This document shows, in pieces, positions 1-59,158 of a stretch of DNA of 63,932 bases (position 1 is its first letter; the number at the start of each line of letters is the position of its first letter). The position numbers and the translations under genes were made by a program. The notes beneath the pieces were generated by a model, which had not been told where the DNA came from, made no database searches, and saw only the letters and a list, made by a program, of their open reading frames with translations. This DNA comes from Myxococcota bacterium (lineage in GTDB: Bacteria; Myxococcota_A; SURF-8; G963663525), in assembly GCA_963676915.2 (NCBI GenBank), contig CAXXVK010000003.1, positions 1-63,932 of the forward strand, written 5' to 3'.

Positions 1-617
1 CAATCGCAAACCGCCAACCCGTCCACTTCGGAACAGGAACCATGCACGCAAGGGTCAGGATTGCAAGGACTGACCGCCACGCATTCCCCACCGGTTTCCT
101 CGTATCCTTCGGCGCAGCGGTCGCAACTCGTCCCGGTATAGCCGTCATGGCAGGTACATACGGCGCTCTCGTTTTCGACAGAGCAATCCCCGTGTCCACA
201 TGGCGAAGGATCGCAGGGACCGCCCGTTCCCGCCGATACGCACTCCAGGCCGTTTTCATCGCGAATGTAGCCCGATGCGCAGTCTTCGCAGGTATCTCCG
301 GCGTATCCCACATCGCAGGTGCACGAAGGCAGGTTTGTGGGATCGGTGCAATGACCGTGTACGCAGTTCGCTTCCAAGCAGAGATCGGCCAGGCATTCCA
401 GCCCGGAAGCGTGATATCCCGCATTGCAGGTGCAGACGGCTTCACCATTCGCCACGACACACGCGCCGAAACCCGAACAAAGCACTCCCTCGCAGGGATC
501 GGCTGTCACGTTTCCATCGCCCGAACCGCTTCCGAAACATCCGGGGGTACTCAAGGAAACCCAGGCGACAAACACCAAGGCAAGAAAAAACGACGGTACG
601 GAACGTTGCAGGATCAT
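1..617 (-). CDS. Cys-rich EGF-like repeat lipoprotein (5' part; runs off the left edge)
   Basis: Absent from the ORF track. Manual translation from ATG 617 (GGAG upstream) gives MILQRSVPSFFLALVFVAWVSLSTPGC-FGSG...DPCEGVLCSGFGACVVANGEAVCTCNAGY...CTCDVGYAGDTCEDCASGY, the same repeat type as the upstream amylase. Confidence 0.85.
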   Translation of the reverse strand, partial: MILQRSVPSFFLALVFVAWVSLSTPGCFGSGSGDGNVTADPCEGVLCSGFGACVVANGEAVCTCNAGYHASGLECLADLCLEANCVHGHCTDPTNLPSCTCDVGYAGDTCEDCASGYIRDENGLECVSAGTGGPCDPSPCGHGDCSVENESAVCTCHDGYTGTSCDRCAEGYEETGGECVAVSPCNPDPCVHGSCSEVDGLAVCD

Positions 618-36826: not shown

Positions 36827-37498
36827 ATGGAAGAGACCATTCTACTCATCGAGGACGACAAAGAGCTGGGCACCCAAATCATCAAGTATTTGCACCGTGG
36901 AGGATTTCGGACCCTGTGGGATACGGAGGGAGAGTGGCTTCTGCCCGGCTCGCTCTCTTCGATTTCCTTAGTGATCTTGGATCTGATGCTACCTGAAACA
37001 CCCGGGTTGGATATCCTCAAAAGGCTGCGGACGTTTTCGGATGTCCCCGTCCTGGTGCTCAGTGCTCGCAACAACACCCAGGACAAAGTACGTGCCCTGC
37101 AACTGGGTGCGGACGACTACATGACCAAGCCCTTCTGGCCCGAAGAGCTGATGGAAAGGGTCCATGCGCGTCTTCGCAGACCGATGATGGCGCATGGAGA
37201 ACCCATACAGTTCGGGCCGGTGGCGTTGGATCTCGGCTCGCGCACGGTCAAAGTCGATGACAAACCGGTGGATCTGACCAAGGTGGAGTTCAACCTGCTG
37301 GCGGCACTGGCTTCACGCGAGGGAGAAGCCATCACAAGGCGCTGGCTGGTGGATCACGTCCTCGACCCGGACAAAGACGGCACCGAACGCACGTTGGATG
37401 TCCACGTTTCCCGATTGCGCAAAAAACTGAAAAGCAAAAGCCTGATCGAAACCGTCTGGGGCATCGGATATCGGTTGAATGCCGGGGAGCAAGCATGA
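36827..37498 (+). CDS. OmpR-family response regulator
   Basis: ILLIEDD, LDLMLP, GADDYMTKPF, RTLDVHVSRLRKKL, TVWGIGY. Confidence 0.96.
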   Translation: MEETILLIEDDKELGTQIIKYLHRGGFRTLWDTEGEWLLPGSLSSISLVILDLMLPETPGLDILKRLRTFSDVPVLVLSARNNTQDKVRALQLGADDYMTKPFWPEELMERVHARLRRPMMAHGEPIQFGPVALDLGSRTVKVDDKPVDLTKVEFNLLAALASREGEAITRRWLVDHVLDPDKDGTERTLDVHVSRLRKKLKSKSLIETVWGIGYRLNAGEQA

Positions 37499-43671: not shown

Positions 43672-45627
43672 ATGGAATCTGATAACCTTCATAAGAAGAA
43701 CATTCTCTGGCCGATCGGCGGTTTGGCTCTCTTGTTCGTTGTCGGATGGCTGGTTTTCGGCGAAACTCTCCAGGCCGATTTCATCAACTGGGACGATCCG
43801 GACTGGATCACTCAAAACTGCACGATTCAATCCCCTTCGCTCGAAACCCTGGTTTGGGTGTTTGTTCCCAATACACATAAGTATTATCAGCCGGTTACCT
43901 ATGCATCCTGGATGTTGGATACGTCCATCGATGGCCTCAACCCCTTCTATTTTCACCTGCAAAATCTTTTCTGGTATCTGCTCGGTTGTGGACTGGCGTT
44001 TTTGTTTTTGAAAAAGCTTTTCGATGCCACCGACACGTTTTCGCCTTCCAGACGTTGGCCGCTGGCTTTGGCGGCATCCTTGCTCTTTTTGCTTCATCCC
44101 GGACATGTCGAATCCCTGGCCTGGGCTACCGAACGCAAGGATCTGCTGACTCTGGCTCTCGGTTTCGCTTCGTTGCTGACATCCCTGCACGTCGCCGTGC
44201 ATACGGAGCGCTCCCCCTGGCGGCTGCGTTCGTGGTGGTGGACACTCGTTTTGTTCCTTTTGATGATTCTTTCGAAGGGTTATGCCGCCGTTTTTGCCGC
44301 CGTATACCTTCTACTCGAACTTGGCGTGCAGCGAGCACGTGGAAGATTCGACCTTCGGCGGCTGTTCTACCACATCCCTTTTTTCGTTCTCTTCATCGCG
44401 TCGGTTGCCTTTTATTATTCGATCAACACGGCCCTTTCCAGCATTCAGCAGTCTTTCGAGCAATACACCTTCGGCCAGCGGGTCGCGCTCTGGTTTTCGT
44501 TTATGGGCGATTATTTTCTGACAAGCCTGCTTCCCTTCGACATCCACTACATCTGGATTTACCGTGAGGAAATGCTTGTCTGGGGTGCGAGGCACGGGTT
44601 CGCGTTGTTCGTCTGTCTGGCAAGCCCGATCTTTGCGGTGCTCGCCTGGCGTAAAAAGTGGATCGCAGGCTTGTTTCTGTTCGCACTGGCGGCCATTTAT
44701 CTCATGCCCGGATCGAGTATCGTTCCATTGAATTGGGCGTCGCGGTATCTGTTGTTTCCGCTGTTGTTTCTTTGTTTCGGTTGGGTGGTCTTGGCCAACA
44801 AACTGCTGGATACATGGCCCGAAAAAGGCGGAAATCTCGCGGCGCTGCTGCTCTTTTTGATCGTTTTGGGAGCCTATGCCACAGAGTCGAAATCGAGAGT
44901 GCCGGTGTGGAAAAACGAGTTGGCGTTTCGTATGGATGCTTTTCGACAGCACAGGGACGCGGATTCCCAGGTTCTGATCACGGCTGAAACGTTGCTCAAA
45001 TACAATCCGGCGTTAGGCTTGAAACTACTGACTCCCATGCTGGAAAACTCCGAAAACCGGAAATTTACCAACGTCCGGCTGGCGGAAATCAATCTCGTGC
45101 GAGGTGCCGCAGGGCCGGAAAAAGCCATTGCCGTAGCGGAAGCCGCTCTGAAAGAAGCTCGCGTTCCCGAGCCTATCGCCAACAACATCGCCTACTATTA
45201 TATGGAATTGGGCAATCCCGAAAAAGCCGCCGAATGGCTGGAATTTTCCGTTCGCAACAAGCCTTCGACAGACGCAACACGAACACGAACGTCTTTCTGG
45301 TTGATCTGGGTGCAAAACGCCATCGAACGGGAAGATTATCCTACCGCTTTGCAGCTTCTCGATCGCCTGCCGCACCAATCCGGTCGGACAACGGCGACGG
45401 TGTTGAGAATTCTGGCCGAAGCCGGTGCAAATGCCGATTGGGAAGGAGCCATTCAAAAGCTGGAAAACGGTCCGTGGCCCGATGCGGCTCGCCCGGTGGT
45501 GTTGCAAGCGCTCGTTCGACTGCACGAAAAGCAGGGAAACTCTTCCAAAGCACAACAACTTCTTCAGGAAAGTGAAAAGCGGAATCAGGACGAGATGTTC
45601 CACCGCTGCTGGTTCGGTGCTTTGTGA
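43672..45627 (+). CDS. TMTC-like GT-C glycosyltransferase (putative protein O-mannosyltransferase) with TPRs
   Basis: FINWDD, YYQPVTYAS, HPGHVESLAWATERKD, SRYLLFP, many TMs, C-terminal TPR-like helices. Confidence 0.88.
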   Translation: MESDNLHKKNILWPIGGLALLFVVGWLVFGETLQADFINWDDPDWITQNCTIQSPSLETLVWVFVPNTHKYYQPVTYASWMLDTSIDGLNPFYFHLQNLFWYLLGCGLAFLFLKKLFDATDTFSPSRRWPLALAASLLFLLHPGHVESLAWATERKDLLTLALGFASLLTSLHVAVHTERSPWRLRSWWWTLVLFLLMILSKGYAAVFAAVYLLLELGVQRARGRFDLRRLFYHIPFFVLFIASVAFYYSINTALSSIQQSFEQYTFGQRVALWFSFMGDYFLTSLLPFDIHYIWIYREEMLVWGARHGFALFVCLASPIFAVLAWRKKWIAGLFLFALAAIYLMPGSSIVPLNWASRYLLFPLLFLCFGWVVLANKLLDTWPEKGGNLAALLLFLIVLGAYATESKSRVPVWKNELAFRMDAFRQHRDADSQVLITAETLLKYNPALGLKLLTPMLENSENRKFTNVRLAEINLVRGAAGPEKAIAVAEAALKEARVPEPIANNIAYYYMELGNPEKAAEWLEFSVRNKPSTDATRTRTSFWLIWVQNAIEREDYPTALQLLDRLPHQSGRTTATVLRILAEAGANADWEGAIQKLENGPWPDAARPVVLQALVRLHEKQGNSSKAQQLLQESEKRNQDEMFHRCWFGAL

Positions 45628-45641
45628 TCCTTCGAAAACTA

Positions 45642-45982
45642 TAGCAGTTACTATTTGGTTTTAGCGCTCCCTATCCTTTTCATATGAGGGGTGGCATGGG
45701 CTAACCGCAGGTTGCCCATGGTGATCGTTTGTACACGGGCAAGCGGACGTTTCACGTCGCTTGGTCAAAGGTTCTCCATCGTTAACCCGCATAATTCATG
45801 AAGAATCTGCTACGACTTGAAAATCCTCGATCTTTCACTTGTTTCCCGATTTCCATCCTCGACAGACTGTTCAGTATGCCTGCGGGTGAAAATCGCTCCA
45901 ACTTCATGAAATATCTTCGATTTCCGGCGTCTCGCTACGATTTTCATGAATAATGCGGGTTAACACCAAATAATAACTGCTA
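45642..45982 (+). mobile_element. MITE family A, copy 3, interrupted by a nested element
   Basis: TA-flanked TIRs TAGCAGTTACTATTTGGT / ACCAAATAATAACTGCTA; same two internal hairpins as copies 1 and 2. Confidence 0.8.
45785..45960. mobile_element. MITE family B nested in family A with a TA target duplication
   Basis: TIRs ACCCGCATAATTCATGAA / TTCATGAATAATGCGGGT (17/18); TA on both sides; removing it restores the family A right end. Confidence 0.82.
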
Positions 45983-45987
45983 TAGAC

Positions 45988-46022
45988 AAAAACGCCCGGT
46001 CCATAGTGTAACGGACCGGGCG
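45988..46022 (-). terminator. Terminator downstream of the megaenzyme operon
   Basis: CGCCCGGTCC-N10-GGACCGGGCG stem with an A5 run on the left (U-tract on minus). Confidence 0.65.
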
Positions 46023-46068
46023 ATACTGTGAAAAAGTACGTTGATTCAAGCGAAATCGTTACGGGTTG

Positions 46069-49000
46069 TCACTCATCCTCTCCTTCCGGTCGAAATCCTC
46101 CGGACTGGTTTCCAAGCTGGGCAGTCACACCGGGATCGTCCCGTCTTTGGATTTCGTCGGTGGAATCCTTCGCCCACTGCCAACGGGTGAAATCGACTTC
46201 CTCGCCGGAGTCGTTCCAGCGCCAGCGACAGGTATAACTGCGCCAGACTTCCCGTTGATCTTCCGATAATAAATCCAGTTCAGCGGCGCGATTCATCACG
46301 ACATCGAAGATTTTCGCCGTCGCGGCATCCACGAGTCCACGGGTGGGCTTGTCCAGCAAATAGGTGAATTCGTACGGAATCGCTCCCAGGTTCTCGATTC
46401 GTTCCGCCTTGTAATACCGTTCCACTACAGCGGACGCCTCGGCAATGAGATCGTCTCGCGGTGTATAGGCCTGACGAATCTCGTCCAGATGTTTCGGGGT
46501 TTCCACAACCTGCCCGCGAATTCCCATGTGGGCGGCACGGAAGGCCCGAGCGGTGCGGCCTTCGTCGTTGGTATCCACACCCTGAATCGGATCGATTCCC
46601 AGGCTGGACGCCGCACTGACCAGTGCTCCCGAAACATCCCAGTTATCCAAGGGAGCGATCTGGTTGATCAATGCGGTCACACCGGCATGATCACGCGCCA
46701 GTTTGAAGGCATGGTCCAATTCTTCAGTTGTTTTCAGGCCGAGTTGAATCGATCCACCCGCGCCGAAGTTTTCGGAAGCTTTTTCGAACGTTTTTTCGTC
46801 GATGGGCTGTCCTCCGCTGCTCTCAAGCACCAGCGTATCAGCCAATTCCCGCGCTTTTTTGAAGTCTTCGGCGGAGGCATCGGGAGACAGAATCACGGCG
46901 GCTTTTTCTCCCAACGCTTTTACGGAAGATTCGTAGGAGTGTAGCGATTCGCCCCTGAGATCCACCTGCACCTGCGAGGCTGACTCGGGGTCGAAATCAC
47001 CCAAGCGCTTGGAATCGATCCGCAGGATGGCCAGGCGGTCCGGCACGATGGCGCGATTCATCGGCAGCGGTTCGTCGAACAGCGGCGATTCGGAAGCCGC
47101 CAGACGACCCAAGGTATCGAGATCGAACAATCCGTTGGAAAATTTCTCCGCTCCCGGATGAGGTTTGATCGTCAGTTTCGGCGGCGGGAACTGCACCTGC
47201 CGAATACCTGCGATGTGTTCCAGGTGAATCGACCATTTGCCGTCGAATCCCATCGCTGCAGCTTTTTCGGCGTCGATTTTCGCAAGTTCCGTGGAAATCG
47301 ATGGTGTAATGGCGTCGATGGCGATCTGTCCGTTGGCGTGGGCCGCTTCGACGGTCCGGCGCTTGGCATAGTGCTGGAATTCGAACTGATAGTTCTGATC
47401 CCATCCGCGTGTAGCCGCAACGTAATCCACATGACCGTATATCAGCGAGATGATTCGAGGACTGGCGGCGGCGATTTCATCCACATATTCCACCGCCAGC
47501 GGATGTTCGATCAGCAACTCCAGCTTGATCCGTCCCACAGGCCAGCCGTTGGCGATTTCCAACGCCGTCAACACCCGGTCGATTTCCTCGATTTCACGGG
47601 GATCGCGGGATTTCGGAATGGTCAAAGCGTCGATGCGATCTCCGACGTGGCGTACCACCTCGTAATAATCGGCAGCCGAAGCCGTGGTGCGTACATTGTT
47701 GGGACGCAGTTTGAGCACTTTGCCGCCGAAGTCCAGATGGCCCAGCGAATCGGCCAGCACGCGCCGCGTTCCTTCGTTGGCCAGATAGCTTTTCAACAGT
47801 TTTTGTTGCGGACGCTTCATGGCCTTCAAAAAGTCTTCGCCGCCTTTCTTTCGGAAGTCGAGGGTAGCCATCAGGCTTTCGAGATCGTGAACGTCCGGGT
47901 TCATCAGAGATTCGGTTATATTTGCCCCTTTCAGGCGCGAACGCGCCGTCTGCAAAGCGGCGACCAGTCCCTTTTTCGCAGGGCTGGAATCCCGACGAAC
48001 GCGGTGGAAGGTTTCCACGGCACGGGGTCGGGCCTCGCGGCGCATGGTCGGTGAAACGGCGTCTTCAAGATCGATCAACGCGGCATTGACATCAGGGTCG
48101 GCAGCGCTGTTCTCGGCATCACGCGGTCTCGTCACGGGAAAAACGTTGATGATCTTCTGCTGCACCAGCGTTTCGGCCAGTTTTTCATCCGAACTTTGCA
48201 CGTCGGACGTTTCATTGACCGCTGTCTCCTTTTTGGTAACGCCACCGACATACAGCAAGCGCCCCAGAGAGTCCGCAACTTCCATGCCAACGGCGATGGA
48301 GCGTCCCGGTTGTACGCCTTCGAGTTTGTCCACAACGGTCGTAACGGCCAATTCTCCCGCTTGAATCGAAACGTCGGCGTGACTCCATGTCGCGTCAAAC
48401 TGTTTCTTTCCACGTTCGGTCGCCAACAAACGATCCAACGTGCGCTCGATGGTGGAAGGCAGCGCTTTTTTCAACAACTTCCCAGCTTTGCCACTTAACG
48501 GCAACGCATCCAGGAAACTCGCGGCGCTCTCGGTGCTTTCCACGGCTTTTTGCACGTCGGCGTTCGTGGCTCCGGCACGCTCGACACTTCGCTTGAGTTC
48601 AAAAATGGCGCGACGTGTATCCAGCAAACTCGTGCCGGTCAGTACGTACCCCGGAACGAAGCTTGCGGACGCAAACGACAGAAGCTGAATCCCCAACGCA
48701 CCCGAAAAGGCCGCGTCGCCTCCCGGGAAAAGCTGTCGGGTTGCGGCGATACGGTCGGTGTCGAGTTCATAGGTGAATGTTTCGTTATCCCCCTCGCTGA
48801 AGTCGGGAGCAGGACGAGGCTCGAAGGCAACGGTATCTTTGGAATACGCCTTCAGATCGATCTCTTCGGTTCGAGGATAGGACGTGGAACGAGGGGAAAG
48901 CCAGGCCGTCGCATCGAAGAGAATGTCTCCCCAGCCGTTGACGGCCTGAAGTCCGACTTTGATTTCCTGCGGCGCGGCATCGAGAATTTCTACAATGGGT

Positions 49001-52000
49001 CGCACCGTATCACCGATTTTGACCGGTGCTTTGAACGAAGGCTGCTCCACGGCTGTAATCTCCATCGACGGAAAACGCCGCCCGACATCGGCAAGCACGA
49101 TCCCTTCGGACCCGACACCATGCAGAATCACCGCGCCGTAACGGGTACGTGCGGCATAGTCCTCATCGAGGTGGTAGCTGTTGCGATCACCGCTGGAGGT
49201 GGCAAGCGCCTTGATGAAATCTCCCGTTACTTTCAGCGGTTCTCCGAGATAAGCGCGACCCGGCAGAGCATCGAGAGATTCCACACCCGCCAGAGTGCCA
49301 ATCGAATGAATACGCACGCCTTCATCGATCCCTTTTTCCGAACGCAGCTTCTCCAGCGCATAAGCGCTTCCCGCGCTTCCAAGTTGAATCAGGTTACGGA
49401 TACCGCCCTCGACCATCGCGGCCATGGTGGCGGACCATTTTAGCGGGGTGGTGAAGGTGCGTTTGAGGTTGTCGAGAATTTTGGCTTTCGAATCGAGCGG
49501 CTGGCCCGGATCGAGCGTCGAGAGCATCGGCAGGCGTGTAGCTGCGATATCGAGGCCATCCACGAAATCCAGGTAACCTTGAAGAATGTCGGTGGATTGC
49601 GCCAACCGTGGTTCGTGAGCGGCGCAAGGATTGTTTGAAACCAGGGCACGACCGCCGGCCTGTCCCACAGCTTCTTCGAGCTTCGTCAGGTTTTCGCGAG
49701 GCAGCGCCACGATAAACAGTGTCTTGGACTCCTCGATGACCACCGAAGCCCCCAAAGGCTTGGTTACATCCAGCATGCGGTCGTAGTCGAGATTTTCGAC
49801 GACAGCCATGCGCAGACCGATATCGTCGGCGCATCCGGCAAGGGAGGCGGCCCAGCGGTAGGCAACTTCCACCGCCGTTTCGTCGGAGAGCGCCCCGGAT
49901 ACGGCGTAAGCCGCCGGTTCGCCCATGCTTTCGCCCACCACGACGGCAGGTTCGCCGTGAACGTCGAAGAAACGCCGTGCCAGCGCGATACTGACGACGG
50001 TTTGAGCGGCGACACTCAACGGGAAGTTCCCGTCCCAGTCCCAACCGCCCCCTTCGACCTGTATGCGTCGAGCCTGGTTTTCACCGGACATCAGGGCGCG
50101 CAATTTACCTTTGGACACACCGAGTTTCTCAAGTGCGACTTCGGCGTGATTCACCAGGTTGATAAGATCGGCATCCAGGTCGAGATCCGCTCCCATGCCG
50201 GGCCAGTGCGAACCTCCCGTCGGGAAGATCAACGCCGATTCGGAAGCTTTCAAAACCGGGGGCGCCACAGGCTTTTCAGGCTTGGAAGTCTTTGTTTTGC
50301 TTTCGTTTTTAGAATTTTCACCTTTGCGCAACTGAGCGCGAGCCAGCTTGCCGAAGTTACTCTTGGCCAGATCCCCGACGATTTCCACAAGCGTCGGTGT
50401 CTCGTGGGCTTCAAGTAGCGGCTTGGCGGCTTCGATAACCGATTCCGGGGTCAGTTCGGCACCGGCCGCCGGAACCACAAAAGCTTTGACACGGTTGGTT
50501 TCGATACTGTCGTCAAAGACTCCGATCACACCGACCTCGGCCACGCCATCAAGCGTCAACAACGCTTGCTCCACCGTTTCCGGGTATACATTGAGTTCGT
50601 TGACCGTAAACATGTCGTCGGCGCGTCCCTGGAAGACGAAGTAGCCGTCGCGGTCCATTTTGAAGATATCGTCCTTCTGCCACCAGCCATCGAGCATCAC
50701 CTTTGCGCTGGCTTCCGGGCGTCCGGCGTAGCCTGAAGACAGATGCGGTCCACGAATCTGGAGTAAACCGGCCACACCGGGAGGTTCCACCTCTCCGGTC
50801 ACGGCGTTGACGATTCTGGCTTCCACGTTCGGTACGGGAATTCCCTCGGTACCCGCACGATTGGTGCGGGCGGGATTCATCAGACTCGAAGGCGTTTCCG
50901 TCGAACCGTAACCCGAGCAGGGAATTACGCCGAAACGTTGTCGCCAGATTTCGGTTACAGCCGGTGTCAACGTATCGCCGCTGGAGGCAATGCGATGCAA
51001 ATGGGAAAGGTCGGCGGATTCGGGAATCATCCGGGCCAGCGTCGCCAGCGCCGAACGGGAGGAAAACAGAATACTGACGTTTTCGTCCACCATCGAGTCG
51101 GCTACGATACTGAGATAGCGCGGTCCGGTGTTGGGGACCACAAGAGCATCCGCTCCCGTGAGGATCGGTGTGAGCACACCGGTGGCGAAACCGTAGGTAT
51201 GAGTGAACGGCAGAGTGGTTGCAACCACATGGGACCGCTCGTCATTCTCCGGGATCATTGTAATGCCTCGCTGCAGACCCAGCGCCAACATACTTTTATG
51301 GGAATGTACAGCCGCCTTGCTTACCCCGGTCGTCGTGCCCCCGGTATAAGGCCATGCGAGTGGATCGTCCGGGGAAACATCCGCAATAACAGGCTCATCC
51401 GATGCTTTTAGCAACAGATCGCGCAATCGGAAAACTTTGACGTTTTTGCCCAACGCATGACTGAATTCCTCTTCGCTTTCCGGTGCACGAGACGGCTCGG
51501 CTCCAGGTACGAAATCTTCCACGCCGGTCAATACGACGGCTTGGAGCGAAGGTACTTTTACCAGAGCTTCGGCGAATTTTCGCGGCGGATCGAGCTTTCG
51601 ATCCCACAAGGCTTTGAACTCGGGTTGAAGTTCGGCAGGAATCAGCTTTGCCAAACTGTCGCGAGCCGTGGCGGAATCGTCGGCTGTCAGCTTTCGGCGT
51701 GCCTTGCGCAACTCGGCCATGAATGCGGTATCGTCATCGAGATCGTTCTCTCCGGCCCAGGCCATCAGTCGAGCGTGATGCAGTTCGGCGTCATCTCCAC
51801 CGGTTCCGGCATCGAAAAACAGGGCTTTGGCTTCGGCATCGTTGAAAAAGCGGTCGGCCAGATGAGCTTTGGATGGGTCCAGCGGCACAATCACCGCCCC
51901 GATGGAGGCCGCCGCCTGGAAAACCGCTACATTGGCCAGGGTGTTACTGGTCGATAAAGCGATGCGGTCGCCTTTTTGGATGCCCAACTCCATGAGGATG

Positions 52001-52362
52001 TTGGCAACACGGTTGGCGCCGGTTTCGAGAATATCGAGAAAGGGAATATCGGCGGTCAGCACTTCGCGTTCGCCTGTACGAGTGACGCGTTCGGCCTTGT
52101 AGTGAAACGCTTTGTCGGAATGCTTTCGGGCCGATTCCAACAGAACTTCCGGCAGGGTTTTGTCGGGAACGTCTACGGTTGCTGGGACTCCCTTGTCGTA
52201 AAGCAGGGTCCATTTGGCGCGCCAGTATCGTTCGAGCGCGTCTCCCTCCATACCCTTTCGAGCTACTGCTGCATCGAGCACCCGCAGGTCTTCTTCCATA
52301 CGAAATGCATGGTCGGGGTCCGCAACGTTTTCGTCTCGAATCAATGCTTCAAAACTTTCCAA
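46069..52362 (-). CDS. Multidomain enzyme: acyl-CoA ligase, acyltransferase, MaoC hydratase, second hot-dog, CitE/malyl-CoA lyase barrel, degenerate CitE barrel
   Basis: YTGGTTTGVSK, GYGSTE, GRADD, KSNFGK (ligase); FPTGGSHWPGMG, GESMGE (AT); SGDRNSYH..ILHG (MaoC); IDLEDAV, LRPNN, IEHP, GHVDY, GFDGKWSIH (CitE). The TTG start has no SD; probably continuous with the upstream ORF. Confidence 0.88.
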   Translation of the reverse strand: MESFEALIRDENVADPDHAFRMEEDLRVLDAAVARKGMEGDALERYWRAKWTLLYDKGVPATVDVPDKTLPEVLLESARKHSDKAFHYKAERVTRTGEREVLTADIPFLDILETGANRVANILMELGIQKGDRIALSTSNTLANVAVFQAAASIGAVIVPLDPSKAHLADRFFNDAEAKALFFDAGTGGDDAELHHARLMAWAGENDLDDDTAFMAELRKARRKLTADDSATARDSLAKLIPAELQPEFKALWDRKLDPPRKFAEALVKVPSLQAVVLTGVEDFVPGAEPSRAPESEEEFSHALGKNVKVFRLRDLLLKASDEPVIADVSPDDPLAWPYTGGTTTGVSKAAVHSHKSMLALGLQRGITMIPENDERSHVVATTLPFTHTYGFATGVLTPILTGADALVVPNTGPRYLSIVADSMVDENVSILFSSRSALATLARMIPESADLSHLHRIASSGDTLTPAVTEIWRQRFGVIPCSGYGSTETPSSLMNPARTNRAGTEGIPVPNVEARIVNAVTGEVEPPGVAGLLQIRGPHLSSGYAGRPEASAKVMLDGWWQKDDIFKMDRDGYFVFQGRADDMFTVNELNVYPETVEQALLTLDGVAEVGVIGVFDDSIETNRVKAFVVPAAGAELTPESVIEAAKPLLEAHETPTLVEIVGDLAKSNFGKLARAQLRKGENSKNESKTKTSKPEKPVAPPVLKASESALIFPTGGSHWPGMGADLDLDADLINLVNHAEVALEKLGVSKGKLRALMSGENQARRIQVEGGGWDWDGNFPLSVAAQTVVSIALARRFFDVHGEPAVVVGESMGEPAAYAVSGALSDETAVEVAYRWAASLAGCADDIGLRMAVVENLDYDRMLDVTKPLGASVVIEESKTLFIVALPRENLTKLEEAVGQAGGRALVSNNPCAAHEPRLAQSTDILQGYLDFVDGLDIAATRLPMLSTLDPGQPLDSKAKILDNLKRTFTTPLKWSATMAAMVEGGIRNLIQLGSAGSAYALEKLRSEKGIDEGVRIHSIGTLAGVESLDALPGRAYLGEPLKVTGDFIKALATSSGDRNSYHLDEDYAARTRYGAVILHGVGSEGIVLADVGRRFPSMEITAVEQPSFKAPVKIGDTVRPIVEILDAAPQEIKVGLQAVNGWGDILFDATAWLSPRSTSYPRTEEIDLKAYSKDTVAFEPRPAPDFSEGDNETFTYELDTDRIAATRQLFPGGDAAFSGALGIQLLSFASASFVPGYVLTGTSLLDTRRAIFELKRSVERAGATNADVQKAVESTESAASFLDALPLSGKAGKLLKKALPSTIERTLDRLLATERGKKQFDATWSHADVSIQAGELAVTTVVDKLEGVQPGRSIAVGMEVADSLGRLLYVGGVTKKETAVNETSDVQSSDEKLAETLVQQKIINVFPVTRPRDAENSAADPDVNAALIDLEDAVSPTMRREARPRAVETFHRVRRDSSPAKKGLVAALQTARSRLKGANITESLMNPDVHDLESLMATLDFRKKGGEDFLKAMKRPQQKLLKSYLANEGTRRVLADSLGHLDFGGKVLKLRPNNVRTTASAADYYEVVRHVGDRIDALTIPKSRDPREIEEIDRVLTALEIANGWPVGRIKLELLIEHPLAVEYVDEIAAASPRIISLIYGHVDYVAATRGWDQNYQFEFQHYAKRRTVEAAHANGQIAIDAITPSISTELAKIDAEKAAAMGFDGKWSIHLEHIAGIRQVQFPPPKLTIKPHPGAEKFSNGLFDLDTLGRLAASESPLFDEPLPMNRAIVPDRLAILRIDSKRLGDFDPESASQVQVDLRGESLHSYESSVKALGEKAAVILSPDASAEDFKKARELADTLVLESSGGQPIDEKTFEKASENFGAGGSIQLGLKTTEELDHAFKLARDHAGVTALINQIAPLDNWDVSGALVSAASSLGIDPIQGVDTNDEGRTARAFRAAHMGIRGQVVETPKHLDEIRQAYTPRDDLIAEASAVVERYYKAERIENLGAIPYEFTYLLDKPTRGLVDAATAKIFDVVMNRAAELDLLSEDQREVWRSYTCRWRWNDSGEEVDFTRWQWAKDSTDEIQRRDDPGVTAQLGNQSGGFRPEGEDE

Positions 52363-54743
52363 GCGCTGTTCGAGATCGGTTTTCGGGGAGTATCGGGCAA
52401 AAATACCGCCTGATCACCACTCCCCAGACGGATGCCATCGTACTCCCGTAACGCTTCAAGGATCGCTTCGGGCGCTCCGAAACCATCTCCCAGCGATAGC
52501 GGCCCACGCAGCACGGCGATGCCGAGTGGCCGGGCAATGGATCGGATCGAACCGGCTCCGTGCTCCAACGCTTCTTCGGCTTCTCGAATGCGACGAACCT
52601 GGGCGTCATGCTCGGATTCTCCAGGCTTGAGAATGAAAAACCAGCCCAGTTGCGCAGGTAATGTCGCTCCCAGTTCCACAGCAGAAATGCGCGGAGTGGA
52701 CATCAGAACGGTGCGGGCGTTGTCCAAGGCGAGAGGAGATTCCAGAACCGCCTGGATACCGACCGAACCTTTGGTCAGGCCGAGCACGCCTTCAAGTTCC
52801 GTCAGTTCGTCATCCAGCGCCCAGACATCTTCCGGCGTTTCGACTTCGGCCACGACATCCAACAGATTTTCACGCAATTCCGGGAAAAAGCTTCGAATTT
52901 CCTCTTGCGCTTCGGGAATGTCACGGCTGAGTTTGAGCGAAAGTTTTTTGCCCGAAGCCGTCCACGTTTTCGCAACATCCAGAGCAAGATTTCGGGCTTC
53001 TGCGAGGGTTTGCGTACTGACGCGCTCAAATTGCAAATTCAGTACGATTTCACCGTACGCCGAGATTTTTTCGAACGAATCTCCGGCCCGTGCAAGCAAC
53101 GAAACCCGCTTGGAACGGTGGCGCGAAGGCGTGACGGCAAAAAGTTTTGCACGACGCCGCTTTTCGGTTTCAAAAGGATCGGCCACGGCAAGAGCCACAC
53201 CCGGCTCACCGGCAGACGCGGCGTCTTCCGTCGTGGCGGGTGCTGCGATCTTGGGTTCGGGAAAATCAGGCTCGATACGTCCGGCCAGCAAATCGTCCGT
53301 TCGGGTAAGAATTTCGCGCACCTTGGCCGCCGCTCCGGCAGGAGCGACCAGTTCCTGCAACTGAACCCCCATTTCGCGCTTGACTTGCCGCCGCAGGTCT
53401 TTGTCCTGCTTGGTGGCGAACTTCAGCAACTCTTCAATTCCCTTGTCGGTAAGGGAGGCTTCTTCTTTCGTGAAAAGCTCGGAATCATCTTTGAAGCGAT
53501 CCAGCAAACGGAACAGCGCCGGATTCATACCGTCAGGCGTCAAAAAACCGAAACTTTCGTGCAATTCCGATAGTTCCATCTCCAGCACGATGAACGTTTT
53601 CGAGGCAATCCGGCGCTTGGAACCGTCGCCCATTTCCAGATCGAAGGACGGCCTCACGGGATTGCCTTCGAGTGTATCGGTGACGAGTGCTTCGGCCCGA
53701 AGCCGCTGTTCATCCGAAGCCTGAGAAAGCCTCGCCAGTTGCCGCGCCATTCCAGCGGCTTCCTGGAACCACTCATACACAAGCTCTTCCCCATCGGTCT
53801 TGAACGAAGGGTCTTCGAAATGCGCGGCTTCATGCAGCAGTTCGCTTCTCAGCAGCAAGTCACGAGCATCGGAAAGATCCTCGGGACCATCGAACAGGCC
53901 GTAGTTGACCAGCACCGCCCCTCGTGCGCCTTCGGACAGTTCCGGGGCATGCTCGATGGCGGCGTAGGATTCGGCATCCAACGTCAACGCAAGAAAATGA
54001 AGCTGGGCAAACGGAGCCAACTTTCGGAAATCGTTGGATTCTTCCGCATTATCGAGGTTGTCGTACGCTTCGGGATGAACTTCGACCACTCGAAATTCGA
54101 GACCGCAACGACGAGCGAGATCGAACACGGGGCCAAGCTCAGGATCGTCGGCCTTGGCCATCAGAGCATTAAAAACGTCCCCTTCGGCATGGAAGATCGG
54201 AGGAGGAGGAGCTTCGGCAGCGGGGCTGCCCTGCAACAGTTCCATGACATCCGTGCGCGACTTTTCGTAGTTTTTCACACCACCCGTTTTAGCCATGGGA
54301 CGTACGTTGTCCAGCGTTCGAGCGTGCGCGGGAAGCACGACAGCCGCCACGGCATGTCCGCCATCGTGAGAGATCGAAACCGACACTTCGGCAGACGAAA
54401 TCCCCGTTTTACGAGCCACAGAGGCGGGAAAATCCAAGGTCGGCGAACCGTCTTCGAGATGCCGAAGCACCACATCGTGTGGCGAAAGCGCACCCGAGGC
54501 AATGCCCGTTCCGATCGCTTTGAAAAACGCCTCTTTCGCTGCCCAGGCTCCGGCTAGACTGGCCGCTGGACTCTTTCGACTTTCGGCATAGGCAATTTCG
54601 TCTTCCGAAAAATTTTCCCGAAGCGAAATCGACGAGACGTTTTCGAAGTCTCGGGTTTCGACGATATCCACACCGACTCGCCCGGCAGTCTTCGAAGACG
54701 CACCCAGCGTTCGTTCCATCTCCTGTAAGTATTGCTCCACCAT
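52341..54743 (-). CDS. AcpS-type phosphopantetheinyl transferase fused to an HExxH-containing region and a degenerate CitE barrel
   Basis: VGVDIV, LAGAWAAKEAFFKA, SISHD (PPTase); LLHEAAH; AEVETPED..LTELE..GIQAVLESPLAL..PRISAVELG (CitE-like). Confidence 0.85.
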   Translation of the reverse strand: MVEQYLQEMERTLGASSKTAGRVGVDIVETRDFENVSSISLRENFSEDEIAYAESRKSPAASLAGAWAAKEAFFKAIGTGIASGALSPHDVVLRHLEDGSPTLDFPASVARKTGISSAEVSVSISHDGGHAVAAVVLPAHARTLDNVRPMAKTGGVKNYEKSRTDVMELLQGSPAAEAPPPPIFHAEGDVFNALMAKADDPELGPVFDLARRCGLEFRVVEVHPEAYDNLDNAEESNDFRKLAPFAQLHFLALTLDAESYAAIEHAPELSEGARGAVLVNYGLFDGPEDLSDARDLLLRSELLHEAAHFEDPSFKTDGEELVYEWFQEAAGMARQLARLSQASDEQRLRAEALVTDTLEGNPVRPSFDLEMGDGSKRRIASKTFIVLEMELSELHESFGFLTPDGMNPALFRLLDRFKDDSELFTKEEASLTDKGIEELLKFATKQDKDLRRQVKREMGVQLQELVAPAGAAAKVREILTRTDDLLAGRIEPDFPEPKIAAPATTEDAASAGEPGVALAVADPFETEKRRRAKLFAVTPSRHRSKRVSLLARAGDSFEKISAYGEIVLNLQFERVSTQTLAEARNLALDVAKTWTASGKKLSLKLSRDIPEAQEEIRSFFPELRENLLDVVAEVETPEDVWALDDELTELEGVLGLTKGSVGIQAVLESPLALDNARTVLMSTPRISAVELGATLPAQLGWFFILKPGESEHDAQVRRIREAEEALEHGAGSIRSIARPLGIAVLRGPLSLGDGFGAPEAILEALREYDGIRLGSGDQAVFLPDTPRKPISNSAWKVLKH

Positions 54744-54787
54744 AGGGGTTCCTTTGCTTCCGATTGCGAAATTTTTGGTAATACGGG

Positions 54788-55957
54788 TTATAAAATGACG
54801 CTGTAAGGCCAGTTTTCGCGCAGAGCGTAATCCGGCAGTGCTTCAATGATTTTCCAGGTGAATTCGAGGTTGGCGGGCGGCAGCGTTCCCAAAGCGGCCG
54901 CTTTGAGCAGGCTTTGCAGCGCTTTGCCGAACATCGGCGGGTCCAGCATTTCGCCCTTGTGCAGAATCGCACCACCGTTCAATGCTCCGGCATCCAGCGC
55001 TTTTTGCAGGATCTCGATCCGGTCTTTGATCCGCAATGGCGACGGGTAAAAGGCCGCACGGCCCAACGGAATATGATAGGGGTGAATGACCTGCTTGCCC
55101 GTCAAACCGAGTTGCGATTCCTCATAGGCATGCGCGAACACGATGCGGGAAGGCTCGTCCGCATCCTCCTGTAACCACTGTTGAATCTCTTCCCATTCTA
55201 CGAAATCCGGCATTTTTTTCTTGCCGATCAGCGTATCGACGCCCCCGACCACGCCTTTGCCTGCAATTCGCGCTTCGAACAGCAGATTGTCGCGGTAGGT
55301 TTTCAGCTCGTTGGGCCAGTTTTCCGGAGTGATGCGAATTCCCATGGCTTTGGAAAAATCGTGTATGCCGAACACAACGTGGCAAACGGGATCGTAGGAG
55401 AGGATTTCGTCCACGATTTTCAAGCTTTTCGGGTGTTCGATAATCGGCTCCACTGCGATGGCGGCCTGAATACCGACCAGCCACGACGCCAAATCACGAA
55501 TTTCGGCGGCTCCGTATTCTTCCCCTGCTTTGGCCAGTTCGAGGACATGGATTTTGTCTTTGAGATCTTTGACCATTTCCAGGTCTTTGTTGAACTCTTC
55601 CGACAAGAACTGATTGATACGAACGGCAATAATCAGATCGTCTCTCTCCAGCTTCGGCAGAACCTTGCGCAGAAAATCGCGACTCTCTTTTTTGCGCTGG
55701 CAACCGTCTTCCAGGTCGAAAACCAGGGTTGTGGCCTTTGTCGTGGCTCCCCACTTCCAGAAACGCTGCTCGGCCTGCTCGAACGTTTCATAGGTGTTTT
55801 TCTCCGGGATGAATTTGATCGGCGGGTAATACAATTCGATTCCGGGCCAGCGACCGGTTTCATGCACCGAGCCGGTCGATGTCGGCGTTACGCCGAAACG
55901 CTGGTTGTGTATATGCCGGTGCTCGATAGGGGAACGTCGGGTGTTTTCGATTTCCAC
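54788..55957 (-). CDS. CitE/malyl-CoA lyase (HpcH/HpaI aldolase-citrate lyase) family enzyme
   Basis: GTG start after AAGGAGG; VFDLEDG, AVRIN, IIEHP, FGIHDF, GKQVIHP, GEMLDPPM; all canonical residues present. Confidence 0.9.
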   Translation of the reverse strand: MEIENTRRSPIEHRHIHNQRFGVTPTSTGSVHETGRWPGIELYYPPIKFIPEKNTYETFEQAEQRFWKWGATTKATTLVFDLEDGCQRKKESRDFLRKVLPKLERDDLIIAVRINQFLSEEFNKDLEMVKDLKDKIHVLELAKAGEEYGAAEIRDLASWLVGIQAAIAVEPIIEHPKSLKIVDEILSYDPVCHVVFGIHDFSKAMGIRITPENWPNELKTYRDNLLFEARIAGKGVVGGVDTLIGKKKMPDFVEWEEIQQWLQEDADEPSRIVFAHAYEESQLGLTGKQVIHPYHIPLGRAAFYPSPLRIKDRIEILQKALDAGALNGGAILHKGEMLDPPMFGKALQSLLKAAALGTLPPANLEFTWKIIEALPDYALRENWPYSVIL

Positions 55958-56508
55958 GGTTTTTCCTCCTTGGCGACTCCTATACGGAGGCCGTCAGGTG
56001 TTCAACGAATCGTCTTCCAGTAGGACAGGTTCCAAGAAATACAAGACCGATACGAGACAACGTTGGTGTCATTTCGTTCCATATATGCCAAACCTGATCC
56101 TTGAAGATTGTTTCCTATACCAAGTAATAACGACTACAAGTTCGTTCTTCTTAACTATGAGGAATAATTTTAAGAATCAAGTCGATAGACTTAATTTCAT
56201 CATATTTTTTTTCGAAGGAGTAAAAGAAGCATCGGGGAACCGCAGGAAATCAAAACTCAATCAAGAGAAATTGCGGAAAAGGGGTTGGGTATCCAAGAAT
56301 TCCTGGTAAAAAATTCCTTCCCTTGTTCCCGAACAAAGCGTTCTTTCTCTTTCCCTTTGCTTGGGAACGTGGTATGCACCGAAAACAAAGAACATGGGTG
56401 GCCGTAGGCTCCGATCCGCAACCCGCCGTTTTCCTGAAAACGAAGCCGTGGAGGATGGATTTTCGAGCGAAGGGCCGTGGAATCTATAACGGAAAGAAAG
56501 GGACGATC

Positions 56509-57360
56509 ATGAGCGAAATCAAAAAAGTAGGGATTCTTGGTGCAGGAATGATGGGTGCCGAAATCGCGCTGTGCTGCGCCCGCTCGGGTATGACAGTGGT
56601 GATGAAGGAAATCACCCTGGAGTTGGCCGAAAAAGGCAAGGGGCGTTGCGAGAAGATTTTGTCGAAAGCCGTAGCCAAAGGCAAAATGGAAGAAGCGCAA
56701 AAGGCTGAAATCCTTGAAAGAATCGTTCCTACCGAAACCTACGATGGTTTCGAAGATGCACAGATGGTCGTCGAAGCGATCCTGGAAAACCTCGACCTGA
56801 AACACAAAGTTTACAAGGAATTGGACGAAATCTGCCCCGCCGAGTGCATTTTCGCCTCCAACACGTCGTCCATCTCGATCACCAAGCTGGCCAAGGCTGC
56901 GCGGGCGGATCGTTTCGTGGGTCTGCACTTCTTCAGCCCGGCCTCGATCATGAAGCTGGTCGAAGTCATTCCCGGACTGCTCAGCTCGGACGAAACCGTG
57001 GAAGCCTCCAAAGCGTTCTGTGAAGCCATCGGCAAAGTGCCGATCAAGGTGCGCAATGTGGAAGGTTTCGTGGTCAACCGCATTCTCTGCGTCATGATGA
57101 ACGAAGCCTACCGTTTGTTGGACGAAGGAGTGGCGACCATCGAAGAAATCGACACCGCCTGCAAACTCGGACTGGGCCACCCGGTCGGACCGTTCCGTCT
57201 GTGCGACAACATCAGCCTCGACCTGCTGACGAACGTCCACGGCATTCTGACCGAAGCCTACGGCGACCGCTTCAAGCTGCCCAACGCCTACCGCGAGCGC
57301 GTGGATGCCGGGCATGTGGGACGCAAAGTCGGCAAAGGTTGGTACGACTACGAAAAATAA
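56509..57360 (+). CDS. 3-hydroxyacyl(butyryl)-CoA dehydrogenase
   Basis: GILGAGMMG, VVEAILEN, ASNTSSISIT, GLHFFSP, GFVVNR, GRKVGKGWYDY. Confidence 0.95.
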   Translation: MSEIKKVGILGAGMMGAEIALCCARSGMTVVMKEITLELAEKGKGRCEKILSKAVAKGKMEEAQKAEILERIVPTETYDGFEDAQMVVEAILENLDLKHKVYKELDEICPAECIFASNTSSISITKLAKAARADRFVGLHFFSPASIMKLVEVIPGLLSSDETVEASKAFCEAIGKVPIKVRNVEGFVVNRILCVMMNEAYRLLDEGVATIEEIDTACKLGLGHPVGPFRLCDNISLDLLTNVHGILTEAYGDRFKLPNAYRERVDAGHVGRKVGKGWYDYEK

Positions 57361-57385
57361 GCGCTAAAGTTCGTATTTTCGTTCA

Positions 57386-57415
57386 CACGGGGATGGTCGC
57401 AAGGCCGTCCCCGTG
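57386..57415. terminator. Hairpin between convergent genes
   Basis: CACGGGGATGGTC-GCAA-GGCCGTCCCCGTG stem with a GNRA loop. Confidence 0.6.
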
Positions 57416-57440
57416 GCGTTTGATACAGTAAAGAGAAATT

Positions 57441-58880
57441 CTACAGATCTTCTTCCGTTCCGCTGTACGGCGCGATATTCTCTCCATCGTTGATCGCCAC
57501 CATGTTGCGACCGTTTTCTTTGGCGAAATACAGCACTTTATCCGCGTCCGAGATGATTTCCTCGGGGGTCGATACTCTAACCACCGGCCAGGTCGAAATT
57601 CCCAGACTCAGATTGACGGACAGCTTCTGATCTCCCCAAGGAACCGCCGTTGTTTCCACGATTCGCCGGATGCGCTCGATGATCCGAGCGGCGTCTTTGG
57701 TGCCTGTTCCCGGCAGGACGAGAAGGAACTCTTCGCCGCCGTATCGGCATACCACGTCACCGGCGCGGCACTGATCGTCCATGGTACGTGCCACGGAGCG
57801 CAACACGGCGTCACCGGCGTCATGGCCATATGTATCGTTGAATTTTTTGAAATGGTCGATGTCCGACATCACCACGCTGATGGGAATGCCGTGTCGCATA
57901 CAACGAGAAAATTCCTCCCGCAAACGCCGCATCCCGAAACGCCGGTTGAGAATCTGAGTCAATTCGTCGATGGCAGCGATTTCCTTGATCTTTTCATGCA
58001 GTACCGCATTTTGCAGATACGGTGCGGAATGGATACGGATGATGTCGAGCAATTCGTCCCAGTTTTCGGTCTGCACGTTTCCGGGATGGGAAACAAAAGC
58101 CACACCGGACAGGCGTTTCTCAACCATCATCGGTACGACACTGACGGTTTGAGGCCGAAAGGTTCCCAGCGGTGTAGAGACTTGAAACCACTGGAAATTT
58201 TCATCGTCGAGTTTCAACGTCATTACCTGGTCGGTTTTCTGTACATAACCGACGGGGCCGAAGCTGCGGTCGAGTTCTCTGGGTAAATCGTCCGTTCGGT
58301 CGATTCCAATGCAAGAGAGAAATTCGATGTTTCCACTTTTCACACCATAGAGCACAGCAGCCTCGGAATGGAGCACTTTCATCAGAGAAGTCAGAATGGT
58401 TTCCGAAACTTTTTTCAACTCCACGCTGGAAGAAAGATCCATCAACAGCGATTGGGTAAAGGTTTCATGGCGAATTCGTTTGCCGATGGTTTCGCTCATC
58501 TCATTGAAGCCAAGCGCCATTTCACCGATAGCATCGTTGCTGTTGACATCGATCCGTCGGAACTCGAAGGATTTGCCGCTGATTTCGGATTGAGAAATCC
58601 CTTCGATAATGGTGTCCATCCCCCGAAGCACCCGATGTATTTCCCGTGTGACGATCAGGTAAAACGTTACATAATTGAGAAGGGCGATCAGTATTCCCGC
58701 GAAAATGCACATGGCGAAAAATAACACCGACAACGCATTTTCCGCATTCAGAGTCACATTCACATAGGGAGGAAAAACGATTCCCACCAAGGCACCAAGA
58801 GACAACATGATCACAAGCAAAAGACGAAAAACACTGCGTGAAGGAAGGGTTTCCTTCATTTTTTGCAAACGGCTGGTCAT
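57441..58880 (-). CDS. Membrane diguanylate cyclase (HAMP-GAF-GGDEF)
   Basis: Two TMs, HAMP, GAF, DELTQILNRR, DIDHFKKFNDTYGH, RAGD I-site, GGEEF. Confidence 0.95.
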   Translation of the reverse strand: MTSRLQKMKETLPSRSVFRLLLVIMLSLGALVGIVFPPYVNVTLNAENALSVLFFAMCIFAGILIALLNYVTFYLIVTREIHRVLRGMDTIIEGISQSEISGKSFEFRRIDVNSNDAIGEMALGFNEMSETIGKRIRHETFTQSLLMDLSSSVELKKVSETILTSLMKVLHSEAAVLYGVKSGNIEFLSCIGIDRTDDLPRELDRSFGPVGYVQKTDQVMTLKLDDENFQWFQVSTPLGTFRPQTVSVVPMMVEKRLSGVAFVSHPGNVQTENWDELLDIIRIHSAPYLQNAVLHEKIKEIAAIDELTQILNRRFGMRRLREEFSRCMRHGIPISVVMSDIDHFKKFNDTYGHDAGDAVLRSVARTMDDQCRAGDVVCRYGGEEFLLVLPGTGTKDAARIIERIRRIVETTAVPWGDQKLSVNLSLGISTWPVVRVSTPEEIISDADKVLYFAKENGRNMVAINDGENIAPYSGTEEDL

Positions 58881-59158
58881 TACGTTCCCCTGATTTTTTT
58901 GGTTTGAGAAGCGAGTATACAAGATTTTTTTCAAAAAGGTGTAGTTTTCCTTTTCGTTTTGAAAAGTTTGGCTCCATCAAAAAATAGTGCGACCAGAGAA
59001 ATTCTTGGTTTTGTGGAAGTCTCCTTGCACGCAACAATCCCCATTTCGGCAGGCAAACGCCTCACCGCTACGACCCGAATAATGAAAGCTTCATCCTATT
59101 TGGGCCGATGGGCACCATTTCATGATGCACGCATTCATAGGAAGTCTACCAGCCGATG

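Follow-up and report, generated by a model that had tools for sequence, protein, structure and literature searches.

A two-gene operon of a Myxococcota bacterium encodes a giant protein that joins CitE-type barrels with a phosphopantetheinyl transferase, an acyl-CoA ligase, an acyltransferase and a MaoC-type hydratase

Which chemistry could be carried out by a protein that fuses CitE-type lyase barrels with a 4'-phosphopantetheinyl transferase (PPTase), an acyl-coenzyme A (CoA) ligase, an acyltransferase (AT) and a MaoC-type hydratase? The question is raised by a stretch of 63,932 nt from a Myxococcota bacterium (contig CAXXVK010000003.1 of assembly GCA_963676915.2), referred to as the window in the following; the genome it belongs to (G000) is a 74-contig draft with a completeness of 90.8%. 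Between positions 46069 and 55957, the minus strand of the window carries three co-oriented open reading frames (ORFs), P0003 (389 amino acids, aa), P0002 (800 aa) and P0001 (2097 aa), which an earlier note on this DNA had put forward as a candidate for a new type of megasynthase that lacks a ketosynthase (KS). The unit turns out to be a two-gene operon, in which a CitE-like gene is followed by a giant gene encoding about 2,890 aa. The giant protein joins eight enzyme-like parts in the order PPTase, orphan HExxH domain, barrel A, ligase, AT, MaoC, barrel B and barrel C (Table 1). As the best reading of this assembly we propose a channelled line that would activate and hydrate thioesters and act on them as a C-C lyase, with a probability of roughly 0.5.

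The two longer ORFs are parts of one gene. A search of a collection of 5.8 billion proteins (E≤0.001, among 8000 candidates scored) returned 45 proteins, seven of which align with the full query, i. e. the window's own record and six relatives from five sources with 54-84% identity (P0005-P0010), while the remaining 38 match the adenylation domain only. All six relatives are single proteins of 2,869-2,910 aa with an ACPS domain at the N-terminus, and the frame break that separates P0002 from P0001 could be located to a loss of 1 nt, hence the assignment of both ORFs to a single gene. The ORFs overlap by 22 nt, and a three-frame translation of the junction against P0005 places the one-base deficit within 52374-52391. 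The homopolymer at this site is a run of four G on the plus strand (52385-52388). The last ~13 residues of P0002 are out of frame, and the TTG "start" of P0001 is an artefact of the frame break. In a genome from the same genus (G018; 4 contigs, ~96% complete), the counterpart of the giant gene has an unbroken frame of 2,889 aa. Hence, of the earlier description of three co-oriented ORFs that end at a terminator, the orientation and the strong terminator stand, but the number of genes is two.

Such a frame break in a draft assembly with 74 contigs could also mean that the locus is a chimeric assembly or a pseudogene without function in this organism, all the more as the word depth is 3.2 in the sequencing run that resembles the source and as two of the relatives have degenerate motifs. 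Logan contigs of two sequencing runs, X1 and X2, were compared with the frame-break region and its surroundings. X1 contains 0.99 of the words of the region and is probably the source run. X2 comes from another study; its short contigs over 51972-53500, with a word depth of 2, belong to a relative that differs by roughly 5-7%, so that the cassette is present in at least one more strain or species. Position 52388 is the end of one contig in X1 as well as of one in X2, where the following contig starts at 52385; no indel was found in any X1 or X2 contig over the region. Contig ends at the G run are the pattern of a de Bruijn graph when reads differ on the length of the run, and they are compatible with either true length. 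Contig breaks at precisely the homopolymer in both independent runs are as expected from read disagreement and not from a fixed lesion. Moreover, both halves of the gene have long open frames with 80-84% identity to G018 and with every motif intact. A chimera, which the earlier note had considered, is ruled out, as the domain order recurs in G018, in L018 (a metagenome contig) and in P0005-P0010, which come from five sources. An artefact or a decaying gene is thus a highly improbable explanation of the locus.

The two-gene operon is real, conserved and very rare. In G018 (contig L017), a CitE-like gene with 94% identity to P0003 is followed 36 nt further on by the giant gene with 80-84% identity, and L018 carries the same pair of genes at 66% and 56% identity. 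The pairing is thus kept in all three loci examined (window, G018 and L018) despite differing flanks. For the synteny of homologs, which the earlier note had suggested as a check, this means that the gene pair is maintained, but that the flanking genes differ in every locus. In a survey of the phylum with 401 sampled genomes, a full-length match to P0001 was found in two, G000 and G018, and the same two genomes are the only ones with a match to P0003 at E≤1e-30. The other 327 matching genomes align to the adenylation domain only, with at most 35% identity in the matches listed. Recent horizontal transfer was considered on the grounds of composition and rejected, since the GC content of the cassette (0.54-0.57 versus a mean of 0.534 for the ORFs of the genome, standard deviation 0.035) and the ordinary GC content at third codon positions give no signal. 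The operon is framed by sequences resembling ribosome-binding sites and by the terminator, and the GTG start of P0003 is preceded by AAGGAGG. An Rfam scan of 45500-57500 gave nothing at E≤1.

How reliable are the domain assignments? The PPTase, ligase, AT and MaoC calls of the earlier note were all confirmed by Pfam, NCBIfam and fold comparison. The possibility that they might fail tests with hidden Markov models (HMMs) did not materialize, as the calls pass curated thresholds (Pfam cut-offs of 25 bits for HpcH_HpaI, 25 for ACPS, 32.7 for Acyl_transf_1 and 27 for MaoC) and agree with the fold comparison. The AlphaFold2 (AF2) models used for the latter were computed from a seven-sequence alignment and have a mean predicted local distance difference test score (pLDDT) of 71 for P0002 and 64 for P0001 residues 1000-2097. 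The PPTase scores 53.5 bits against Pfam ACPS (PF01648; P0002 residues 22-109) and 73.6 bits against TIGR00556 (cut-off 45.35). Its fold matches AcpS from H. pylori (5xuk; Z 17.6, root-mean-square deviation (rmsd) 1.5, 111 residues aligned) and the phosphopantetheinyl transferase (PPT) domain of fungal fatty acid synthase (FAS; 2was, Z 15.4), and the GVD..., WAAKEA..K and SxSH blocks are kept in all members that carry the domain. The ligase is recognized by AMP-binding (186.1 bits) and AMP-binding_C (41.9 bits). The best match of its family profile in the PDB is malonyl-CoA synthetase (4fuq, 4.2e-44), with a modest lead over other acyl-CoA ligases, and its motif blocks are invariant in all eight sequences, including the distant giant relative P0169. 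For the AT (Acyl_transf_1, 38.8 bits), the best PDB match is FabD from M. tuberculosis (2qc3, 2.2e-9); the serine of the GESMG motif and the downstream His are kept in seven of the eight sequences, while P0169 is devoid of the Ser. The MaoC part (41.7 bits in Pfam) resembles Rv0216 (2bi0), mesaconyl-CoA hydratase MeaC (8hgn) and a Chloroflexus protein (4e3e) with Z 23, and its helical insertion of ~80 aa is modelled confidently. The SGDRNSYH motif with its Asp and His is kept in 6/8 sequences and lost in P0010 and P0169. Taken together, the window and P0005-P0009 have intact motifs in the PPTase, the ligase, the AT, MaoC and barrel B.

The presence of four CitE-family barrels, two of them intact and two degenerate, is likewise borne out, for P0003 and barrel B by motifs and for barrels A and C by their folds. 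The motifs, which we take to be acidic metal ligands, a substrate-binding Arg and a C-terminal G-K-x-x-I-H block, are all intact in P0003, as is the C-terminal lid, according to an alignment with Rhodobacter malyl-CoA lyase (4l9y). The same protein (3.2e-9) and CLYBL (1.1e-8) are the best sequence matches of P0003 in the PDB. P0003 falls below the equivalog cut-offs for citE (TIGR01588, 40 versus 443.4 bits) and RipC-Ccl (NF038242, 35.1 versus 375 bits). It belongs to a large family with 1,185 matches at E≤0.001 among 8000 scored candidates. Ranked below the partners of the giant proteins are stand-alone P0003-like proteins with 54-59% identity, of which there are hundreds in Pseudomonadota; the few named sources are Usitatibacter, Inmirania, Sedimenticola, Gallionellales and metagenome-assembled genomes of Gammaproteobacteria. 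A tblastn search of plasmids with the P0003-like family gave no match, and a search for longer proteins with fused P0003-like parts found none at E≤1e-10, which is weak evidence.

Barrel B gives 63 bits against HpcH_HpaI (P0001 residues 1532-1713) and carries a helical insertion of ~90 aa after the DLEDAV strand. Its motifs are intact in the window and in P0005-P0009 and changed in P0010 and P0169. Barrel A reaches 22.2 bits at P0002 residues 631-693, which is below the HpcH_HpaI cut-off. Its modelled fold aligns with malyl-CoA lyase (4l7z; Z 23.2, rmsd 2.8, 249 residues aligned; Foldseek E 4e-9 to malyl-CoA lyase) and with CitE (1sgj, Z 21.1). Barrel C has no Pfam match, and its model (P0001 residues 1766-2029) aligns with malyl-CoA lyase 5ugr (Z 20.6, rmsd 3.5, 206 residues aligned), with Z 19-20.6 across 5ugr, citramalyl-CoA lyase 8khl and CitE from M. 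tuberculosis. In both A and C, the acidic, Arg and G-K-x-x-I-H blocks are missing or altered, while C keeps the lid; the two belong to the CitE family by modelled fold only. The AcpS and CitE folds are trimeric. Conceivably, barrels A, B and C may mimic a CitE trimer within one chain, and the combination of AcpS and CitE folds suggests a trimeric particle.

A further part had been overlooked in the earlier note. Between the PPTase and barrel A lies an orphan domain of ~370 aa with the longest invariant blocks of the whole protein. It has no sequence match in Pfam or the PDB, and merely four matches were obtained among 1.84 billion representatives, namely its own family, P0169, a 76-aa fragment and a 288-aa protein. 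In the window and in P0005-P0010, an HExxH motif is invariant together with a Glu that stands 20 residues downstream of its second His, a spacing presumably equal to that of thermolysin-type zincins; P0169 has lost the motif. The ESM Atlas offers a weak lead ("Zn-binding metallopeptidase", score 0.76), and the AF2 model of the domain is poor. Such strong conservation together with almost no relatives makes the domain conspicuous in its own right.

Table 1. Parts of the two-gene operon and associated features (positions in the window; residues refer to the ORFs as assembled).
Feature	Position	Strand	Basis or remark
Gene 1, P0003, 389 aa, stand-alone CitE/HpcH-family TIM-barrel lyase	54788..55957	-	Pfam HpcH_HpaI 39.5 bits
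Giant gene, N-terminal part, P0002, 800 aa as assembled	52341..54743	-	relatives continue in frame
AcpS-type 4'-phosphopantetheinyl transferase domain, P0002 residues 22-140	54324..54680	-	Pfam, NCBIfam, fold
Orphan conserved domain, P0002 residues ~150-520	53184..54296	-	invariant blocks in family alignment
CitE-like barrel A, P0002 residues 524-794, degenerate catalytic motifs	52362..53174	-	fold; Pfam sub-threshold
Frame-break site, C4/A4 stretch on coding strand, one base short versus in-frame relatives	52374..52391	-	
Giant gene, C-terminal part, P0001, 2097 aa as listed	46069..52362	-	
Acyl-CoA-ligase-type adenylate-forming domain, P0001 residues 113-688, insertion of ~125 aa	50299..52026	-	Pfam
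FabD-like acyltransferase domain, P0001 residues ~712-1000	49363..50229	-	Pfam; PDB sequence match
MaoC-type double hot-dog hydratase/dehydratase, P0001 residues 1002-1387, helical insertion of ~80 aa	48202..49359	-	Pfam, fold
CitE barrel B, P0001 residues ~1400-1765	47068..48165	-	Pfam HpcH_HpaI; full CitE motif set
CitE-like barrel C, P0001 residues 1766-2097, CitE-type C-terminal lid and conserved tail	46069..47067	-	fold
Intrinsic terminator, 47 nt past the stop codon	45993..46022	-	12-bp stem with 9 G-C pairs, loop of 6, TTTTTGT

How could these parts act together? In the channelled thioester line that we favour, the ligase, whose closest counterparts are dicarboxylate and malonyl-CoA synthetases, would use ATP to activate a carboxylic acid that is probably a dicarboxylate. 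The hot-dog domain would interconvert an enoyl thioester and a 3-hydroxy thioester of the malyl or citramalyl type, while CitE barrel B and/or the separate CitE protein would act on the C-C bond with a 2-oxo acid, for instance glyoxylate or pyruvate, by forming or cleaving it. Such a sequence would follow the chemistry known from the itaconate, mesaconate and malyl-CoA pathways and from citrate lyase. Like citrate lyase and malonate decarboxylase, the protein may bind at least one intermediate through a phosphopantetheine arm, which is suggested by the fusion with a PPTase and a FabD-like AT that both look catalytically intact. By analogy, the giant protein would resemble an itaconate-type pathway to which parts for priming and transacylation, as found in citrate lyase, malonate decarboxylase or fungal FAS, have been fused.

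Each of these known systems shares some features with the operon and differs in others. Citrate lyase (CitD/E/F, CitC, CitX/CitG) and malonate decarboxylase (Mdc, with the FabD-like MdcH) combine a CitE-type lyase or a FabD-like transacylase with an ATP-dependent ligase and a dedicated holo-carrier synthase, all grouped around thioester intermediates, with the ligase charging a thiol; parts of these kinds are present here. In contrast, neither a CitD-type carrier (PF06857, 0/2 genomes) nor an MdcC-type carrier was found, the priming enzyme is of the AcpS type instead of CitX, the ligase is of the ANL type instead of the CitC type, and all parts reside in one chain to which a MaoC hydratase has been added. 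The itaconate and mesaconate pathways (Ict/Ich/Ccl, i. e. RipABC, as well as Mcl/Mch of the 3-hydroxypropionate bi-cycle and the ethylmalonyl-CoA pathway) likewise process dicarboxylyl thioesters with a MaoC-type hydratase and a CitE-type lyase that act one after the other, and mesaconyl-CoA hydratase MeaC, itaconyl-CoA hydratase as well as malyl- and citramalyl-CoA lyases are among the structural neighbours of the giant protein. However, these pathways use a CoA transferase where an AMP-forming ligase is present here, and they consist of separate small enzymes, in which the PPTase, the AT, the extra dead barrels and the orphan domain have no counterpart.

Fungal and CMN-type (Corynebacterium-Mycobacterium-Nocardia) type I FASs are giant chains as well, with an AcpS-type PPT, a FabD-like acyltransferase and a MaoC-like multi-hot-dog dehydratase (DH). 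The PPT domain superimposes on that of fungal FAS (2wat/2was) with TMt 0.82 and Z 15.4, and the hot-dog part on the DH of yeast FAS with Z ~19. The differences lie in the absence of a KS, a ketoreductase, an enoyl reductase and a recognizable acyl carrier protein (ACP), in another domain order and in the presence of CitE barrels and an adenylating domain. Finally, P0070, a homologue of P0003, leads to ESM Atlas clusters of proteins with ~750 aa and ~400 aa, in which AMP-binding (or AMP-binding_C alone) is joined to HpcH_HpaI. The ~750-aa fusions, which are commonest in Campylobacterota, are grouped in one cluster, for which the automatic description gives 60 members, 100% of them with PF00501 and 98% with PF03328. 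Like the giant protein, they connect a ligase with a CitE/HpcH barrel and may represent a minimal form of this ligase-lyase pairing, but they are devoid of the PPTase, the orphan domain, the AT, MaoC and the extra barrels. The complete architecture, which the earlier note did not recall as described, is conserved down to ~54% identity, and no published description was found in the full-text literature, subscription journals and supplements not being covered.

If an intermediate is tethered, where is the carrier? Neither the cassette nor the genome yielded a carrier domain. PF00550 and the CitD-type ACP profile PF06857 have no match in G000 or G018, TIGR00517 has none in G000, and no match at E≤10 was obtained when all six reading frames of G000 were searched with an HMM made from seven same-order ACPs. 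Three candidate sites were rejected. A cryptic ACP at P0002 residues 330-430, noticed by eye from a Ser and an acidic helix, gave a probability of 0.12% (E 0.49) in hhalign against the seven same-order ACPs, with both alignments being shallow. The Ser of the helical insert in the hot-dog domain is not conserved and is followed by a basic helix, and the RVRRD[S/T] motif of the barrel-B insert has Thr in two members. Invariant Ser residues are present in the orphan domain. In the three ORFs, Pfam detects no KS, condensation or carrier domain; in all of G000, the condensation profile PF00668 has no match, while PF00109 yields weak partial matches only (profile positions ~163-205) and PF00975 weak matches only, in both cases on other contigs. 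The earlier statement that the window holds no KS, condensation, thioesterase (TE) or canonical ACP domain is thus upheld, and the giant protein is not a megasynthase of the polyketide synthase (PKS), FAS or nonribosomal peptide synthetase (NRPS) type, as it has no KS or condensation domain and no PP-binding domain.

The host lineage adds to this picture. Among ten genomes of the host order, PP-binding was found in three and ACPS in five, i. e. the same three as well as G000 and G018. In the latter two, the sole ACPS match is the giant protein itself, so that the cassette brings its own PPTase. A convincing KS is present in 2/10 genomes, the matches in the rest being short, thiolase-like and partial. 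The order is hence largely without the hallmarks of type II fatty acid synthesis, and the genomes that lack them include assemblies of one and three contigs. Bradymonabacteria are reported to be without FabB/F and FabI/L (PMC7460792), a parallel to the host order that is drawn here without assigning the host to that group. As the PPTase is the only one found in its host and as the PPTase blocks and the Ser and His of the AT are conserved in the window and in P0005-P0010, it can be argued that a phosphopantetheine acceptor is part of the cassette.

These considerations bear on the biosynthetic function envisaged in the earlier note, in which a thiotemplate megasynthase without KS would hold an acyl group on a non-canonical carrier, condense it with a 2-oxo acid by means of CitE and dehydrate the product by means of MaoC to alkylmalate-, alkylfumarate- or itaconate-type acids. 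Biosynthetic thiotemplate systems are usually built from a PPTase, a FabD-like AT and an adenylating loader, the PPTase is the sole one found in a host devoid of any other PPTase or ACP, KS, condensation and TE domains are missing, and the patchy spread (2/401 genomes of the phylum) is typical of accessory or secondary metabolism. However, none of the searches uncovered a carrier domain, the cassette has no conserved neighbours with a role in release (TE), tailoring, export or resistance, and sets of CitE, MaoC and ligase are best known from catabolic and central pathways. Of the carrier-based line without KS, the fusion of CitE, MaoC and ligase parts with a PPTase and an AT has thus been retained, but not the carrier. 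While a KS-free megasynthase is possible, a channelled catabolic complex fits equally well, and we regard the biosynthetic variant as unlikely. A more daring version assumes a self-priming KS-free megaenzyme, the AcpS part of which arms a new carrier of a non-ACP type, possibly located in the orphan domain, and in which the Claisen/aldol chemistry of CitE replaces the KS. Tentative as it is, with the odds clearly against it, this idea would, if true, add a fourth kind of thiotemplate system to FAS/PKS, NRPS and citrate-lyase-type complexes, in form of a portable two-gene cassette that works in hosts without an ACP or PPTase of their own.

At the other end of the spectrum stands a catabolic multienzyme that depends on CoA only. 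Its ligase, hydratase and lyase would act as in the breakdown of itaconate or mesaconate, while the PPTase, the AT and the two dead barrels would serve only as oligomerization scaffolds or as modules that bind CoA. All three core activities have CoA-dependent stand-alone relatives, the failure to find a carrier is in accordance with this idea, and so is the trimeric nature of the AcpS and CitE folds. Further, degeneration has affected two of the four barrels, and catalytic residues can be lost within the scaffold, as demonstrated by P0010 and P0169. Yet, the window and all six relatives with 54-84% identity have the acidic and basic blocks of the PPTase and the Ser and His of the AT, a pattern that would argue for retained activity, and a host without another PPTase has no evident reason to maintain an intact one that is not used. 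We consider it doubtful that the giant protein relies on CoA alone.

Several observations also weigh against the channelled line. A carrier was recovered neither by PF00550, PF06857, TIGR00517 and the order-specific ACP HMM nor by hhalign of the candidate region. Barrel B (pLDDT 45-67) and the orphan domain are poorly modelled by AF2 from the seven-sequence alignment, and there is no RNA run among the sequencing runs listed as containing the region. The gene context offers no clue to a pathway, since each locus has flanks of its own: the window has a 3-hydroxyacyl-CoA dehydrogenase and a tetratricopeptide repeat protein beside the operon, G018 has DsbD and a repeat protein of 2,102 aa, and L018 has lipoyl synthase. 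In addition, P0010 (2,869 aa) keeps the PPTase and AT residues, but has lost the MaoC Asp and two metal- and substrate-binding residues of barrel B. P0169 (2,605 aa; 32% identity over P0005 residues 152-2819) retains every ligase motif, but the PPTase is missing, and so are the Ser of the AT, Asp and His of MaoC as well as the motifs of barrel B and HExxH. From these losses it follows that the scaffold can persist without most of its chemistry, which calls for caution in deducing function from the architecture, and the two proteins may be pseudoenzyme paralogues. The joint loss of the PPTase and the AT Ser in P0169 was considered as a sign of joint function and dismissed, because P0169 has lost nearly all motifs except those of the ligase.

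What would follow from the channelled line? If the PPTase and the AT are functional, the protein must hold or recruit a carrier that lies beyond current models, and it would be the first multienzyme in which a CitE barrel and not a KS handles C-C bonds on a tethered thioester. In a more conservative view, the protein is an unusually complete natural fusion of activating, hydrating and cleaving activities, which would be useful for studies of channelling and for the engineering of C2-C5 dicarboxylate chemistry. A host lineage that is apparently devoid of ACP, PPTase and KS provides a clean background for finding the target of the fused PPTase.

Some features of the surroundings deserve mention. 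Around the region, a gene for a PocR-STAS protein (33943-34875, minus strand), an OmpR-type response regulator with a HAMP histidine kinase (36743-39102, plus strand) and a GAF-GGDEF diguanylate cyclase (57441-58934, minus strand) were noticed; no link between these signalling genes and the operon was found. The 3-hydroxyacyl-CoA dehydrogenase gene of the window (56323-57360, plus strand; 3HCDH_N and 3HCDH, E 5e-60) is divergent from the operon and is not kept in G018 or L018. Antisense to it lies a 352-aa ORF without Pfam match (56257-57315, minus strand), which is probably a shadow ORF. In L018, the lipoyl synthase gene (10267-11304; Radical_SAM and LIAS_N) is located directly downstream of the giant gene, which may be coincidence. 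Just downstream of the giant gene in G018, L017:6855-13163 encodes the 2,102-aa protein, the sole Pfam match of which is the Dictyostelium CTDC repeat (4 stretches, E 5.6e-15) and which has a weak match of 141 aa elsewhere in the window (617..234).

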